A stretch of DNA of 64,000 nucleotides from an uncultured Mycoplasmatota bacterium (GTDB lineage Bacteria; Bacillota_I; Bacilli_A; RF39; UBA660), in contig URLC01000001.1 in the NCBI GenBank assembly GCA_900548695.1, positions 271,354-335,353 of the forward strand, read 5' to 3'. The position numbers were made by a program, and so were the translations under genes. A model generated the notes under the pieces. It saw nothing but the letters and a program-made list of their open reading frames with translations. It made no database searches and had not been told where the DNA came from. How positions within the stretch are numbered: the first letter of the stretch is position 1; each line of letters opens with the position of its first letter. Positions 16,657-34,831 of this stretch are shown piece by piece.

Positions 16657-17013
16657 ATGTTTCAGGAGTTTATTTTATTTACTATGTGTTTTTTTGTAGT
16701 GTTAGTGGTATATGAAATTTTTATTGTTAGGAAAACTAAAAAGGATAAGAACAAAAAAAAACCTATGGAAGTTAGATACTTAATTACTAGGTATCATTTA
16801 AATATGCAAAAAGTGGATTATCCACAATTGTTACAAATTGTTGCTTTAGTATCATCGTTTGATATTGCACTTATAGTTTCTTTAGCGATGATTGTTGATT
16901 CCTATTTATGGCAACTTCTTTTGGTTTTAATACTAGTTTTACCTGTTATTGTTGTTAGTTATCATTTTGTTGGGATATTTTATAGAAAGAGAGGAATGAC
17001 GAAGAATGTATAA
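16657..17013 (+). CDS. small polytopic membrane protein (118 aa), hypothetical; translationally coupled to leuS
   Basis: Strong RBS AGGAGG 7 nt upstream; 3 TM segments; stop overlaps the leuS start (ATGTATAA). Confidence 0.45.
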
Positions 17014-19819
17014 TTTTAGTAAAATAGAGGAAAAATGGAGAAAATATTGGGAAGATAATGATACTTTTCATACTGATGTTTGGGATTTTAGTAAGCCTAA
17101 GTTTTATGCTTTAGATATGTTTCCTTATCCTTCTGGAGTAGGACTACATGCAGGACATGCTGAAGGGTATACTGCTACTGATATTATTTCTCGAATGAAG
17201 AGAATGCAAGGATATAATGTATTGCATCCGATGGGCTATGATTCTTTTGGGTTACCAGCAGAACAGTATGCTGTAACTACTGGTAATCATCCTAATGGAT
17301 TTACACAAAAAAATATTGAAACTTTTAGTAATCAGTTAAAAGCTATTGGTTTTGATTATGATTGGTCTAAAACTTTACAAACAAGTGATCCTAAATTTTA
17401 TAAATGGACACAATGGATTTTTAAACAATTATATAATGATGGTTATGCTAAATATATTGATATGCCAGTTAACTGGTGTGAAGAACTTGGGACTGTATTA
17501 TCTAATGATGAAGTAATTGATGGTAAAAGTGAACGTGGTGGATTTCCTGTTGTTAGAAAGAATATGAAACAATGGGTTATTGATCAAGCTGCTTTTGCTG
17601 AAAAATTACTTGCTGGGCTTGATGAACTTGACTGGCCTGAGTCTACTAAGGAAATGCAAAGAAATTGGATTGGCAAATCCATTGGAGCGCAGGTTATTTT
17701 TAAAGTGGCTGGTACTTCAGAAGAATTTAAAGTTTTTACTACTCGTTGTGATACTTTATTTGGAGCTACTTATTGTGTTATGGCCCCAGAACATGAGCTT
17801 GTTGATAAAATTACAACAGCTTCACAGAAAGAAGCAGTAGATTCTTATAAGAGAGTATGTGCTACTAAAAGTGATTTAGAAAGAACAGAACTTAATAAAG
17901 AAAAAACGGGTGTTTTTACTGGTTGTTATGCGGTTAATCCAGTTAATAATAAAGAAATTCCAATCTATATTTCGGATTACGTTTTAGCAAGTTATGGTAC
18001 TGGTGCTATTATGGCGGTTCCAGCACATGATGATCGTGATTTTGAATTTGCAACTAAGTTTAATATTCCAATTATTCAAGTGTTAGAAGAAGTTACTGGT
18101 AAAAAACATGATGATGAGTCTAAAAAAGAGTCTATTGTGGCTATTGTATATGATAAAGAAGAAGATAAGTACTTAACCGTTAATTGGAAAGAAAATGGTG
18201 GTCGTCTATTTATTGGTGGAACTAGAAAAGAAAATGAGTCTGCGGTAGATTGTGCTATTCGTGAGGTTTTAGAAGAAACTGGGTATACTGATATCGAACT
18301 TGTATGTGAGGATTTTAAAATTAATCATCATTATTATGCTTATAATAAAGATAAATACTTTAATATTGAGGCTACTCCATTATTGTTTGCACTTAAGAGT
18401 AAGAAACAAGATTCTCAAAATTTAGAGGAAGATGAAAGTTTTACTGTTGAATGGGTAGATAAGTCTACTATTTTAAAAGAAATCAAGGATGAATTACATT
18501 TGAAATCGTTTGAATATGTTTTAAATCCACGTGCGATGTCAGGTGATGGTATTCATATTAATTCAGATTTTTTAAATGGTTTAAATAAAGAAGATGCTAT
18601 TGACAAAATGATAGATTGGCTTACTGAGCATAATTGTGGTTCTAAGCAAGTGAATTATCGCATGAGAGAGTGGATTTTTGCTAGACAAAGATATTGGGGA
18701 GAACCAATGCCAGTTGTTTATTTAGAAAATGGGGATATTCATATTTTAGATGATGATGAGTTACCACTTATTTTACCTGAGCTTGATGATTATAAAGGTC
18801 ATGGTGGTAAGGCTCCACTTGAAAATGCCAGTGATTGGAAACAATATAGTCATAATGGTTTGAAAGGGGTTCGAGAAACTTCTACTATGCCTGGTTCGGC
18901 TGGCTCATCTTGGTATTATTTAAGATATATTGATCCAGAAAATAATGACTTTTTTGCTAATCAAGAGCTATTGAAACACTGGATGCCAGTTGATTTATAT
19001 ATTGGAGGACCAGAGCATGTTGTTGGTCATTTGATGTATTCTAGAATTTGGAATAATTATTTATATGATAAGGGATTATCTCCTGTTAAAGAACCATTTA
19101 AAAAACTAGTTCATCAGGGAATGATTTTAGGGGCTAATGGTATTAAGATGGGTAAACGTTATCCTGAGTTTGCAATTGATCCACTTGATATTGTTCGTGA
19201 TTATGGAGCTGATACTTTAAGGCTTTATGAAATGTTTATGGGTCCACTTGAAGCTTCTAAACCTTGGAGTCAACAAGGAGTTGAAGGTGCTCAAAAATTT
19301 TTGGATAGAATTTATCGTTTATATGAATCAGAAAAACTTCAAGATACAGAAAATAAAAATCTTGAAAAGATTTATCATCAAACTGTTAAAAAGGTAACTG
19401 ATGATTTTGAAACACTTAATTTTAATACTGCAATTAGTCAAATGATGATATTTATCAATGCAGTTTATAAAGAAGAAATATTTCCTAAAGAATATGCTGA
19501 AGGATTTGTTAAATTGTTAAATCCTGTTGCTCCTCATATTTCTGAAGAGATTTGGGAAATGTTAGGTCATCATGGTACTATGGCTTATGAAGCTTGGCCT
19601 ACTTATGACGCATCTAAATTGGTTGAAAATACTAAAGAGATAGCAGTTCAGGTAAATGGTAAGGTTCGGGCTACTATAACTATCTCTGTTGATGAAGATG
19701 AGGAAATTATTAAAGAGAAAGCATTGGATGCTGAGAATGTTAAGCGTCATACGGATGGCAAAGAGATTATAAAAGTAATCGTTATAAAAGGTAAAATTGT
19801 TAATATCGTGGTTAAATAA
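17006..19819 (+). CDS. leuS: leucine--tRNA ligase carrying an in-frame Nudix hydrolase domain insertion (937 aa)
   Basis: HAGHAEGY (HIGH); CP1 editing motifs TTRCDTLFG and [15 protein letters not shown]; KMGKR in place of KMSKS; anticodon-binding and C-terminal domains present. Nudix box [24 protein letters not shown] at 18215-18286. Confidence 0.93.
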
Positions 19820-19887
19820 TAAATTATTATAAAAAAATACAAAAGTATCTTACTTTTGTTCTAAAAAATGATTTTTTATTACTAAAA

Positions 19888-19929
19888 AAAGAGGTAATGA
19901 TATTCGCTTGGATATCATCTCTTTTTTTG
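19888..19929 (+). terminator. rho-independent terminator after leuS
   Basis: Hairpin AGAGGTAATGATAT...ATATCATCTCT followed by a T7 tract. Confidence 0.7.
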
Positions 19930-20010
19930 GAAATTTATTTTAATGGTTAATACGTTTTATATAGTTAAGTAAAATATTTTACTTTGTTCATTTATGTGGT
20001 TAATTATAAA

Positions 20011-20039
20011 TTGACATTTTAAATTTAATATGTTATAAT
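20011..20039 (+). promoter_or_regulatory. perfect consensus sigma-A promoter TTGACA-17 bp-TGtTATAAT
   Basis: -35 TTGACA at 20011-20016, 17-bp spacer, extended -10 TGTTATAAT at 20031-20039; ATG at 20065 with an AGAGGGGGA RBS. Confidence 0.7.
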
Positions 20040-20064
20040 CTATACACATTTAGAGGGGGATGTT

Positions 20065-21009
20065 ATGAATATTTGTATTCAAGCCGCAGAGGCATCAACT
20101 CGTTTTGAAAAAAATAATTCAGAGTTGAAACGTTTATATTTAATAAAAAATATTGATACAATTAATACTATTATGGGAATGGCTCCTGGTTATTGTGGTT
20201 CTTTTGGTACAGGTTATCCTTTTTATGCATTGAATTCTGAACTAGAGGGGCAATTACCAATTATTGATGAGCAAATACGTTATAATGAGGAGTTATTTAA
20301 AGAAGCTCAACAATTAGGTACAACTTGGGTTTGTGCAAAATGCTTATCTACAACAGGACAAAATATGCCTGATTTGAAACAGATTTGTAAGCCATGTCCT
20401 CAATTGACAGATTCATTGAAGCCTAGAAAGGTTATTAATAGGTTGCCGGATGTTGATATGTGGATGGTGTGCGCTGATAGTGAAGTAGAATCAGCAAAAA
20501 CTGCATTATCTAAATTGTTTGATTCTTTTAATATGCATACTTCAGATGTTGATCCTGTTCAAACAATTAAAGATGTTACAGAAATTTCTATCGATATACA
20601 AAATGGAAAGATGCCTACGAAATTACTTCCTTTAGATATTCATATTATTGAATATTCAACTTTAAGTAATTTGTTTAATCAAATTCCATTTGTTTTACAA
20701 AAATCTATGGAAGAAAATAATGTTCCATATCTTCCTATTCATCCAACATCATTAAGAAAAAAATGGCAACATGATGATGTTGCATACAATTTTGTGTTAG
20801 ATTTTTTATATACTATGACGCCATTTTCTTTTGAGGAGAACTTAGATCGTAAGTTGGATTTTACTAGAGGAATTATTTCTCAAGTTTTTGATAATGATCA
20901 ATTAACAGCTTTTCTACATTCTGTTGCTCCGGCATCTGTTGAAAGAAGATTTCAAACTCCTCAATTACAAAAAACATATGAAAGAAGGATTGAATCATGG
21001 AGAAAATAA
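20065..21009 (+). CDS. uncharacterised Cys-rich protein (CxxC-x19-CxxC zinc ribbon), possibly a divergent pol-beta-fold nucleotidyltransferase
   Basis: GSFGTGYPFYALNSELEG (fits the hG[GS]-x13-[DE]h[DE] pattern of minimal NTases); WVCAKC...CKPCP zinc ribbon; 13-bp overlap with the downstream PHP gene. Confidence 0.45.
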   Translation: MNICIQAAEASTRFEKNNSELKRLYLIKNIDTINTIMGMAPGYCGSFGTGYPFYALNSELEGQLPIIDEQIRYNEELFKEAQQLGTTWVCAKCLSTTGQNMPDLKQICKPCPQLTDSLKPRKVINRLPDVDMWMVCADSEVESAKTALSKLFDSFNMHTSDVDPVQTIKDVTEISIDIQNGKMPTKLLPLDIHIIEYSTLSNLFNQIPFVLQKSMEENNVPYLPIHPTSLRKKWQHDDVAYNFVLDFLYTMTPFSFEENLDRKLDFTRGIISQVFDNDQLTAFLHSVAPASVERRFQTPQLQKTYERRIESWRK

Positions 21010-21890
21010 TTGACTTACACATTCATACAAATTGTTCTGATGGAGACTTATCTCCTAAGCAGGTTATCGATGAAGCTTTAAAAAATGGTGTTAGTGTTGT
21101 TGCAATTGCTGATCATGATACGATAGATGCTTATGATGATGAGTTATTTCAATATGCAAAGGATAAAAATATTAAAATTATTCCTGCTGTTGAAATTTCT
21201 ACTAAGAATAAAAAATGTGGCTTTCATGTTTTAGGCTATAATTTTGATATGAAAAATAACGAGTTAGTACAAAAATTATTTGAATTAAGAAATGCTAGAC
21301 ATGATTATTTATATAATGTGTCTGTTAAGTTAAATGATTTAGGATATAAAGTAAATGTTGAAGACCTTGATAAGATTGAAGCTGTTACAAAGGCACATAT
21401 TTATTTTGATATTATAAATAATCCTGATAATCATGAATCTTTATTAAAAACTTTTGGACATATTCCTGATAAGGGAGAGTTTATTGAGAGTATTATGAAT
21501 GAAGGCTGTCCTGCATACGTTAAAAAAGCAACTATTACTCCAGTTGAAGCATCTAAGTTAATACATAATGCTGGTGGAAAAGTTATTTTAGCTCATCCTG
21601 TTGCTTATAAATATGAAGATAACTTTATGGCTGAAGATGTTTTAAAATTAGTGCAAGATATGCAGGCTGATGGAATTGAAGCTAATTATGTTTATGTTGA
21701 TAAAGATAATCATAAAATAAATGACAGTGCTTTTTGGAATCAATTTGCTAAGGAACATAATTTAAAGACTACAATTGGTTCTGATTTTCACAATAAAGAT
21801 GGATTACATCCTGTTATTGGACTTCTTGGTGAAAACATTACTATACTTGAAAATTATATTGATGGTCTTCTAGATTGGTTATTGAGTTAA
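20997..21890 (+). CDS. PHP-domain phosphoesterase (TrpH/YciV, RNase AM-like)
   Basis: N-terminal DLHIHTNCSDGDLSP metal-binding motif; ADHD motif; ~297 aa, typical TrpH length. Confidence 0.75.
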   Translation: MEKIIDLHIHTNCSDGDLSPKQVIDEALKNGVSVVAIADHDTIDAYDDELFQYAKDKNIKIIPAVEISTKNKKCGFHVLGYNFDMKNNELVQKLFELRNARHDYLYNVSVKLNDLGYKVNVEDLDKIEAVTKAHIYFDIINNPDNHESLLKTFGHIPDKGEFIESIMNEGCPAYVKKATITPVEASKLIHNAGGKVILAHPVAYKYEDNFMAEDVLKLVQDMQADGIEANYVYVDKDNHKINDSAFWNQFAKEHNLKTTIGSDFHNKDGLHPVIGLLGENITILENYIDGLLDWLLS

Positions 21891-21952
21891 TGTTTACTAG
21901 TTTTCAACAAATTTTGTTGAAAACTTTTTTTATAGTTATTTTAGGTGATATT

Positions 21953-22123
21953 ATGAAAGTGAAAATTTTTGATGAAGAAGATGAAAAGGATTTAGAAGCT
22001 GATATTAATGAATTTTTGGAGGATTTAGAAGGAGAAGTTGTTGATATAAAGTACCAAGTTGGAGTTGGAGTTTTTAGTGAAGAACAAGTGTTTTGTTTTT
22101 CAGCGATGGTAGTTTATTATTAG
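21953..22123 (+). CDS. Cse60-like small acidic protein (sporulation-associated family)
   Basis: MKVKIFDEEDEKDLEADINEFLEDLEG...IKYQVGV...FCFSAMVVYY resembles Cse60/YteV. ATG at 21953 follows an AGGTGA RBS; upstream part of the tracked ORF is intergenic. Confidence 0.5.
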   Translation: MKVKIFDEEDEKDLEADINEFLEDLEGEVVDIKYQVGVGVFSEEQVFCFSAMVVYY

Positions 22124-33821: not shown

Positions 33822-33888
33822 AAAAAGGAGGGTTATTTAGTAACACTCCTTTTTTGTTAAAGAAAAAAATTCACTAAATAGTGAATTT
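33822..33888. terminator. two back-to-back terminators: AAAAGGAG...CTCCTTTTTT for the + gene and AATTCACTAAATAGTGAATT with a T-tract on the minus strand for rpsD
   Basis: Two hairpins with flanking A/T tracts between convergent genes. Confidence 0.65.
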
Positions 33889-34490
33889 TATTTATTGTAG
33901 AATTCAACGATTAATGCTTCATCGATATCGGCATTAAGTTCATTTCTTTCAGGAAGTCTAACATAAGTTCCTTCCATCTTTCCTTCATCGTAATTAATGA
34001 AGTCAACACGTTTTGTTACTTTAGCTAAGCTTTCAGCAACAACTTTTAAGTTTTTATGGTCTTCTTTAATAGAAATTACATCACCAACTTTAACTTGATA
34101 TGATGGAATATCTACTTTTTTACCATTTACTGTAACGTGTCCATGATTTACAAGTTGTCTAGCTCCACGACGAGTACTAGCAAAACCGATTCTGTATACT
34201 AAATTGTCTAAACGAGATTCTAGCATTCTTAAAAAGTTAGTACCAGTAACACCTTTTAATTTAGATGCTTTGTTAAAAGTATTATGGAATTGTCTTTCAT
34301 TAATTCCATACATGAAACGAACTTTTTGTTTTTCTTTTAATTGAGTTCCATAATCAGATAATTTACCTTTACGTGCATTTCCGTGTTGTCCTGGTCCGTA
34401 TGGACGACGAGCTAATTCTTTACCAGTTTCGCTAATTGAGAATCCAACGTGACGAGCTTTCTTGTAACTTGGTCCAGTATATCTTGCCAT
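33888..34490 (-). CDS. rpsD: 30S ribosomal protein S4
   Basis: [18 protein letters not shown]...; full-length S4. Confidence 0.95.
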
Positions 34491-34831
34491 ATAAATCTTC
34501 TTCCTTTCTTTTTATTACATTCATTGAAATGATTTAGTCGTAGATTAGGGAGTTTTTCTTTCTCTTTCGCGTAAACAGCAATTGTTACTTGATTTCATAA
34601 AAAACACATTAATATACTCTAAATCTGCTGTTTCAAGTGAATTGCAGTTATAATTATAATCGAAAAGTCCTTATATGTCAATGGTTATGTTAGTTCTTTG
34701 ATTATTGTTTTGGAGTTTTTTTGTTTTTTCTTTCTACTTGGTATTTATTTGTGATATTATTTTTCTAAAATAGTAGAAATTTGTTGATATTTTGTGATAG
34801 AATATGAATAGATATTATAAGGTGGTGGAGT

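Follow-up and report, generated by a model that had tools for sequence, protein, structure and literature searches.

What does an unannotated protein do when it is encoded, in genome after genome, immediately in front of a phosphoesterase gene? This question is raised by a two-gene operon in a stretch of 64,000 nucleotides (nt) from an uncultured Mycoplasmatota bacterium (contig URLC01000001.1), hereafter the window. The first gene, open reading frame (ORF) A, encodes a protein of 314 amino acids (aa), referred to as A, and the second, ORF B, encodes a PHP-domain phosphoesterase of 297 aa. A belongs to a new family that combines a predicted nucleotidyltransferase (NTase)-like fold, an unusual zinc-module insertion and a novel, near-obligate partnership with PHP enzymes, and no relevant description of an NTase-PHP or Fic-PHP module was found in the literature. 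The reading favoured here, tentatively and as possible rather than probable, is that A is an active NTase-fold enzyme that transfers a nucleoside monophosphate (NMP), and that its PHP partner is a hydrolase that erases or processes the phosphoester product of A.

Pairing of A with the PHP enzyme across genomes

Members of the A family are known from over 100 uncultured species of Bacilli from human and animal guts, as well as from Patescibacteria. A PHP gene lies downstream of A, on the same strand, in all 80 species-representative genomes that encode A, almost all of them metagenome-assembled genomes of uncultured gut Bacilli or 'Clostridia', and in seven of seven metagenome loci. The B homologues of these loci are 49-79% identical to ORF B and start between -13 and +205 nt from the end of A; the tblastn matches of A and B also run into each other where the two genes meet in about half of the loci from species genomes, and the loci L001-L007 have exactly the 13-nt overlap that is found in the window. 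Even in the deep branches of the family, where A is 20-32% identical, the PHP gene follows immediately in six of the seven assessable loci, one of which is annotated as Patescibacteria. The co-occurrence of the pair across genomes, which an initial annotation of the window had proposed to examine, is therefore well established. The single A locus without a PHP gene, L095, carries convergent HAD phosphatase and NUDIX genes instead (L095 7062-8212). When the flanking ORFs of 95 fetched loci and of the window region were clustered, A was found in 96 of 96 loci and PHP in 91, the next cluster being leucyl-tRNA synthetase (LeuRS) with 11, and this clustering revealed no third gene conserved beside the pair. 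In one deep-branch lineage, a CYTH (triphosphate tunnel) gene is located 16 nt after the PHP gene (L093 7913-8509, L094 3559-4155).

The linkage looks different from the side of the hydrolase. A search with the PHP protein retrieved 84 loci (58-86% identity). About 47 of them carry A directly 5' of PHP, three a decayed C-terminal remnant of A, eight a Fic gene, two an epsilon-like/zeta module and one a ThyA-like gene; in the others, the upstream gene is unrelated or no gene could be assessed there. Neither A nor Fic precedes the PHP gene of the ORF B subfamily in roughly a quarter to a third of these loci. The remnants (L137 3681-4010, L155 3783-4010 and L161 3786-4010) retain just the C-terminal 75-110 residues, lie between an unrelated upstream gene (in L155, one for a RumA-type methyltransferase) and an intact PHP gene, and look like decayed copies of A. 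The dependence is one-sided: A needs PHP and is almost never seen without it, while PHP does not need A.

Family, conserved residues and predicted fold of A

As a single sequence, A gives no significant match in Pfam, NCBIfam, PADLOC or the PDB sequences, in agreement with the initial annotation, which had found no obvious family for it. Fifty diverse members searched singly against Pfam, and their profile searched against the PDB sequences, returned weak zinc-ribbon noise at most and no NTase match, and a profile search of 5.8 billion proteins returned just A's own closed, unnamed family. This family comprises 596-613 clusters at 90% identity and 165 representatives at 50% identity; nearly all of its members are 300-370 aa long, none carries a Pfam domain and the sole name given to them is 'hypothetical protein'. 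Membership of a curated NTase family was rejected, given the lack of a match in Pfam, NCBIfam or the PDB profile search. An hhalign comparison of the family profile with kanamycin nucleotidyltransferase, to be taken as a lead only, gave a probability of 0.2%.

The fold was approached through an AlphaFold2 model built from a 50-sequence alignment that reaches down to 20% identity, and which scores a pLDDT of 96.4 and a pTM of 0.93. In this predicted model, the alpha/beta core can be superimposed on known NTases, and the elements follow one another in the order expected for an NTase core, that is, a glycine-rich loop, the strand with the DxD motif and the strand with D191 and H193. No significant match emerged when the model was compared by Foldseek with the PDB and with viral structures; the weak matches include the CD-NTases CdnD and DncV, and HalB. 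An insertion of about 70 residues, formed by helices 68-82 and 89-100 together with a Cys4 site, separates the glycine-rich loop from the DxD strand, and a C-terminal helical domain (about 243-313) is modelled as in ANT enzymes and Tam41. According to the comparison of the family profile with the PDB sequences, the Cys4 module resembles RanBP2-type ribbons weakly (E ~0.3).

Throughout the 50-sequence alignment, P52, C108, C111, P120, R121, D129, D131, D161, P189, D191 and H193 are invariant, and G50, E69, W88, C90, C93, P128, S160, W234, D246 and W312 nearly so. Three of the invariant carboxylates are placed in the model as those of NTases are, with D129 and D131 where strand 130-136 begins and D191 in strand 190-196. 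D129 and D131 are accordingly candidate catalytic metal ligands, and the glycine-rich loop is the probable counterpart of the hG[GS] loop of NTases. We conclude that the family of A is new and divergent, that its fold is NTase-like and that its active site probably depends on metal, both the fold and the residue equivalences being those of a predicted model.

These results amend the initial annotation in several respects. The strings GSFGTGYPFYALNSELEG, DVD and DLHIHTNCSDGDLSP that it quoted are all present in the proteins of the window, and its suspicion of an NTase-like nature agrees with the predicted fold, but the signature from which it argued, GS-x13-ELE, was the wrong one, since E59 and E61 are not conserved even among close homologues and the candidate carboxylates are D129, D131 and D191. 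Its zinc ribbon is real and conserved, with the spacing CxxC-x14-CxxC (C90, C93, C108, C111) instead of x19, and its DVD motif corresponds to a DxD that is invariant across the family. As for the profile search and structure prediction that it had recommended, the model turned out to be NTase-like, while the profile searches linked A to no known family.

The PHP phosphoesterase

ORF B matches the Pfam PHP family (E 1.9e-10), and its relatives in the PDB are 9etk, RNase AM (7ug9), Cv1693 (2yb1) and 3e0f; the TrpH/RNase AM-type assignment made in the initial annotation is upheld by these matches and by the conserved ligands described below. The alignments to such relatives are weak (phmmer E ~1e-18 to 1e-16), and the scores against NCBIfam NF041577 (3',5'-nucleoside bisphosphate phosphatase; 139 bits, equivalog cut-off 400) and NF047791 (RNase RNM; 126 bits, equivalog cut-off 375) are so far under the cut-offs that ORF B represents a related but distinct subfamily. 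It has the same PHP barrel with an insertion domain as TrpH/YciV, that is, RNase AM, and as the 3',5'-nucleotide bisphosphate phosphatase Cv1693, and differs from them in forming its own subfamily and in being usually preceded by A.

The functional residues of RNase AM (PMC9410882) were transferred to ORF B through alignment. All nine metal ligands are kept (H8, H10, D15, H40, E66, H77, H200, D263 and H265), each in at least 97% of 83 partner proteins. The 5'-phosphate pocket of RNase AM, formed by R107, R110 and R141 (PMC9410882), is represented by R98 (88%), R101 (99%) and K132 (100%), and R201, which contacts the sulfate or phosphate in RNase AM, is replaced by a conserved alanine, Ala203. 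TrpH-type PHP enzymes act as 5'-3' exoribonucleases and decapping enzymes (PMC9410882; PDB 7ug9), and short 5'-phosphorylated oligonucleotides and pAp are among their substrates (PMC9410882; NCBIfam). Judged by these residues, ORF B is an active-looking TrpH-type esterase of a distinct subfamily, and its probable site of action is the 3' phosphoester of a nucleotide carrying a 5'-phosphate.

Exchange of the gene upstream of the PHP gene

PHP homologues that are 83-86% identical to ORF B share their synteny with the window (LeuRS with a Nudix insert, a variable slot, PHP, Cse60, MurJ and two FemAB genes in succession), with Fic genes occupying the slot. In the conspecific locus L096, the DNA is ~99% identical to the window up to position ~19626 and again from ~21900. 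Identity drops to 74-87% over the final ~200 nt of leuS and the initial 500-900 nt of the PHP gene, as is characteristic of the import of a block by homologous recombination. This block (L096 513-4934) contains a transglutaminase-like gene, a 136-aa ORF, a ThyA-like/DUF4346 gene and a Fic gene of 378 aa. The sister lineages L098 (3979-4875) and L104 (2907-3893) carry instead a single Fic gene of 298-328 aa with its own promoter and a GAGGGGGAT ribosome-binding site, which in L098 resembles that of ORF A, AGAGGGGGA. Both types of Fic protein have an intact HPFx[DE]GNGR catalytic motif, HPFGDGNGRTIRG and HPFNDGNGRTGRI, and share just 38% identity over 50 residues, for which reason they are taken as unrelated and independently acquired. 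Fic is the other fold known for NMP transfer, and Fic enzymes modify proteins. A is therefore variable among strains of the window species, and Fic genes alternate with it in the slot. On gene content, the A-PHP module is accessory rather than housekeeping, in view of the variability of A, of the persistence of the hydrolase alone and of the ability of Fic to fill the position of the putative writer.

Other genes are also found at this position. A Zeta_toxin-family kinase gene lies directly 5' of the A-PHP pair in 11 species (L050, L054, L060, L062, L066, L067, L074, L077, L079, L082 and L084), in seven of which a small epsilon-like ORF was detected too. In L174 (284-1253) and L176 (178-1316), an epsilon-like ORF and zeta stand directly upstream of PHP without A, the zeta gene of L176 overlapping the PHP start by 13 nt. 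Since the zeta loci carry an epsilon-like antitoxin ORF of their own, it is doubtful that zeta is a functional partner of PHP, and the adjacency may be incidental.

Proposed function and its alternatives

Under the favoured reading, we infer that A is a catalyst that would take a nucleoside triphosphate (NTP) as donor and move the NMP onto an acceptor hydroxyl or phosphate, and that the PHP enzyme, by means of its predicted trinuclear metal site and its pocket for a 5'-phosphate nucleotide, would hydrolyse the resulting phosphoester or a nucleotide by-product. The modification would thereby be transient, or a harmful product would be removed. The acidic nature of A, its two-domain layout similar to that of ANT enzymes and Tam41, and the nucleotide pocket of PHP favour an acceptor other than a long nucleic acid, so that a nucleotide, a small molecule or a protein would be likelier than long RNA or DNA. 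The same writer-eraser logic is followed by DarT-DarG and DrrA/SidM-SidD, where the transferase gene is also located directly upstream of the hydrolase gene and the hydrolase family also exists alone. In both of these systems the transferase is never carried without the hydrolase. Their folds differ from those of the A-PHP pair (ART and macrodomain in DarT-DarG, GlnE-like NTase and PPM phosphatase in DrrA-SidD), and the toxicity and erasing that occur there would extend to A and PHP by analogy.

In favour of an active A that transfers NMP to a product handled by PHP, the invariant D129, D131 and D191 fall on the strands expected for NTase carboxylates. The intact active site of PHP, the one-sided linkage, the exchange of A for two unrelated Fic families, the recurrence of epsilon/zeta modules beside the pair, the acidity of A and the recurring strong promoter also count in its favour. 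Several observations weigh against it. The canonical hG[GS]-x9-13-DxD spacing is absent from A, whose glycine-rich loop (G48, G50, P52) precedes D129 by about 80 residues; at the canonical distance before DxD stand K119-P120-R121. The pocket of PHP fits a nucleotide and Fic enzymes modify proteins, so that a common substrate of A and Fic is not obvious. The Fic-PHP junctions do not overlap, PHP having there its own ribosome-binding site and possibly a terminator in between, and among the residues of PHP the search for positions that separate A-linked, Fic-linked and partner-less proteins yielded T165S alone. The region upstream of PHP may be a mere insertion hot spot. Finally, neither tblastn searches of phage and plasmid collections nor a scan of IMG/VR retrieved relatives of A, and this absence from phages, plasmids and viral contigs, together with the lack of a PADLOC match, leaves a classical mobile toxin or defence system unsupported.

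A more far-reaching version, which we consider unlikely, holds that A and PHP are a writer-eraser system shared by gut Bacilli with reduced genomes and Patescibacteria, in which A, interchangeable with Fic AMPylases, would install an NMP mark and PHP would remove it, A being conditionally harmful and therefore carried only with its antidote. If so, PHP would be the first de-nucleotidylase (deAMPylase) of the PHP family.

The one-sided linkage would also be explained if the target of A were PHP itself, since A would be useless without its target. In such a scenario, which also appears unlikely, A would nucleotidylate (AMPylate) PHP to switch its activity, as MNT does with HEPN, and Fic would do the same job elsewhere. 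The overlap of an upstream NTase gene with its partner gene recalls HEPN-MNT, the proteins modified by Fic enzymes could include PHP, the sole constant neighbour of A and Fic, and the PHP site retains a normal nucleotide pocket. However, PHP is partner-less in about a third of the loci and is thus not a toxin that needs neutralisation, partnered and unpartnered PHP proteins are not told apart by any residue, and A, with 314 aa and an ANT/Tam41-like C-terminal helical domain, is no minimal MNT. In the type VII toxin-antitoxin systems formed by HEPN and MNT, MNT AMPylates its partner, whereas A is three times larger and its partner is a PHP esterase, not a HEPN RNase. A toxin-antitoxin system of the HEPN-MNT kind was rejected, as PHP is commonly found alone, including at loci with decayed remnants of A, which would not be the case for a toxin. 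Alternatively, A could be an ANT/Tam41-like NTase of small molecules or lipids, devoted to the inactivation of xenobiotics or to the activation of a phosphorylated metabolite as a nucleoside diphosphate derivative, with PHP catalysing the next phosphoester step. This is quite unlikely: although A is acidic like ANT enzymes, strain-variable and strongly promoted like resistance cassettes, and although HAD and NUDIX hydrolase genes adjoin the lone PHP-less A locus, the sequence of A resembles that of no ANT, Lnu or Tam41 family, known ANT enzymes require no esterase partner, the pair is kept in Patescibacteria as well as in gut Bacilli, A is not found on plasmids, and the HAD/NUDIX context is that of one locus, with convergent genes. 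The antibiotic ANTs compared, ANT(3'')(9)/AadA, AAD(9), ANT(4') and LinB, have no sequence relationship with A; they have GS-x(9-13)-DxD where A has the zinc-containing insertion of ~70 residues, and A differs from them in being almost always paired with PHP and absent from plasmids. Tam41, the mitochondrial and bacterial CDP-diacylglycerol synthase (PDB 7ecd, 6ig2), shares 9-11% sequence identity with A, with no profile match. It lacks the Cys4 insertion, and no membrane or lipid context was seen at the A locus. To our knowledge, Tam41 has no obligate PHP partner.

The initial annotation had envisaged the pair as a nucleic-acid end-processing system, an echo of PolX in split and much reduced form. 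A pair for the end-processing or repair of RNA or DNA, in which PHP trims or dephosphorylates and A adds nucleotides, as in a split PolX or a CCA-adding enzyme with an HD domain, could draw on the TrpH-type PHP enzymes that are 5'-3' exoribonucleases and decapping enzymes (PMC9410882; PDB 7ug9) and on the weak likeness of the zinc module to the RNA-binding RanBP2 ribbons. It is nevertheless very unlikely, because A is acidic (pI 5-6, the median being 5.9 among close and 5.1 among distant relatives; net charge -3 to -11), unlike nucleic-acid-binding NTases, polymerases and RNA-tailing NTases, because it is strain-variable and often lost while PHP remains, because its best structural relatives are not polymerases and because the protein-modifying Fic fills the slot in some strains. 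The PolX analogy fails as well, the match to PolX in the NCBIfam search spanning just 36 residues. PolX does combine an NTase-fold domain with a PHP domain, as A and PHP do, and a split PolX was rejected, as the pair does not show the combination of a Pol beta-like polymerase core with a PolX-type PHP domain. That A could be a synthase of second messengers or oligonucleotides and PHP the phosphodiesterase that degrades them, by analogy with CD-NTase/OAS enzymes and ring nucleases, is suggested by the presence of CD-NTases (CdnD, DncV) and HalB among the weak structural matches, by the cleavage of short 5'-phosphorylated oligonucleotides and pAp by TrpH-type PHP enzymes (PMC9410882; NCBIfam) and by the frequency of synthase-hydrolase pairs. 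No effector or receptor gene is conserved nearby in 96 loci, though, PADLOC is empty for A and B, and the occupation of the slot by Fic genes is at odds with this scheme, which makes this alternative highly improbable. CBASS/CD-NTase and other known defence systems were rejected, given that PADLOC found no significant match for A or B, that no third gene is conserved and that the searches of phages, plasmids and viral contigs yielded no relative of A. Exceedingly improbable, lastly, is the lack of any functional coupling, with a housekeeping PHP gene lying beside a recombination hot spot and A being one of many unrelated cargo genes. The slot 5' of PHP does hold A, two types of Fic, a ThyA-like gene, epsilon/zeta modules or nothing, and the swap uses leuS and PHP as homologous arms; yet A stands right upstream of an ORF B-type PHP gene in unrelated contexts from gut Bacilli to Patescibacteria, usually overlapping it or within at most 25 nt, and was seen once without PHP, which a hot spot in a single lineage cannot explain.

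Whichever function applies, a compact family of about 600 sequence clusters, with a confident model, an apparent metal-binding active site and a near-obligatory partner, has so far been missed by annotation. If A is an active NMP transferase, it would introduce a new two-enzyme logic for PHP esterases, known so far as pAp phosphatases, 5'-3' exoribonucleases and decapping enzymes; it would provide a natural experiment on the equivalence of NTase-fold and Fic-fold AMPylators, as both alternate at one locus within a species; and it would help to annotate the large 'hypothetical' share of reduced genomes. If the pair is an ordinary accessory metabolic step, its value is limited to the naming of a new family.

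Organization of the operon and neighbouring genes

The features of the operon are listed in Table 1. The promoter described in the initial annotation was found as such, as were both ORFs and their overlap, which suggests translational coupling. The window contains two perfect TTGACA-N17-TATAAT promoters, where 0.05 would be expected from shuffled sequence. In other species, too, a strong extended -10 promoter is located ~25-30 nt 5' of ORF A, and 16 of 80 ORF A loci have a promoter score of at least 11/12, while the best score of shuffled sequences averages 8.8. The DNA homology of L008 and L103 to the window begins at 20010, exactly at the -35 box. The second perfect promoter of the window (34653-34681, minus strand) lies 5' of a minus-strand ORF of 200 aa (33888-34490).

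Table 1. Features of the A-PHP operon in the window (positions in nt; residue numbers are those of A).
Feature	Position	Strand	Evidence
Strain-variable cassette: intergenic region, promoter and ORF A	19821..20996	.	no homology to L096, L098 and L104 between the leuS stop and the PHP start, where these loci have Fic-containing cassettes
Sigma-A promoter TTGACA-17-TGtTATAAT, extended TG	20011..20039	+	scores 12/12
Ribosome-binding site AGAGGGGGA of ORF A	20052..20060	+	direct sequence reading
ORF A, 314 aa, unannotated protein with NTase-like predicted fold and zinc module	20065..21009	+	
Glycine-rich loop GSFGTGYPFY, aa 45-54, directly after strand 43-48	20197..20226	+	P52 invariant, G50 nearly so
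Cys4 zinc module W88-x-C90-x2-C93-x14-C108-x2-C111	20326..20397	+	C108 and C111 invariant; C90, C93 and W88 in at least 90% of sequences
KPR-x7-PDVD, aa 119-131, at the start of strand 130-136; P120, R121, D129 and D131 invariant	20419..20457	+	alignment and model
D191-I-H193 on strand 190-196, candidate third carboxylate or catalytic base	20635..20643	+	D191, H193 and P189 invariant
Overlap of ORF A stop and ORF B start, 13 nt	20997..21009	+	
ORF B, 297 aa, TrpH/RNase AM/pAp-phosphatase-type PHP phosphoesterase	20997..21890	+	
Intrinsic terminator-like hairpin with a T-run behind it, where the operon ends	21899..21925	+	hairpin kept in L008, L096, L103 and L104

On its 5' side, the operon is adjoined by leuS, which ends at ~19819-19820. 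This gene (17006-19819) encodes a LeuRS of 937 aa, with a NUDIX hydrolase domain (aa 377-489, window ~18134-18472; Pfam E 2.6e-9) inserted immediately behind the CP1 editing domain (aa 219-372), an architecture shared by the LeuRS of L096 and L098. We know of no aminoacyl-tRNA synthetase described with a Nudix insertion. The 3' neighbours are a Cse60 gene, murJ and two femAB genes, the Pfam labels of murJ and femAB having been obtained via the syntenic L096. These neighbours mark the host as a low-GC Firmicute that forms spores. The gene for the sporulation protein Cse60 (21953-22123; Pfam E 2.9e-22) directly follows the terminator of the operon, and its presence indicates that this lineage of gut Bacilli with small genomes retains sporulation genes.

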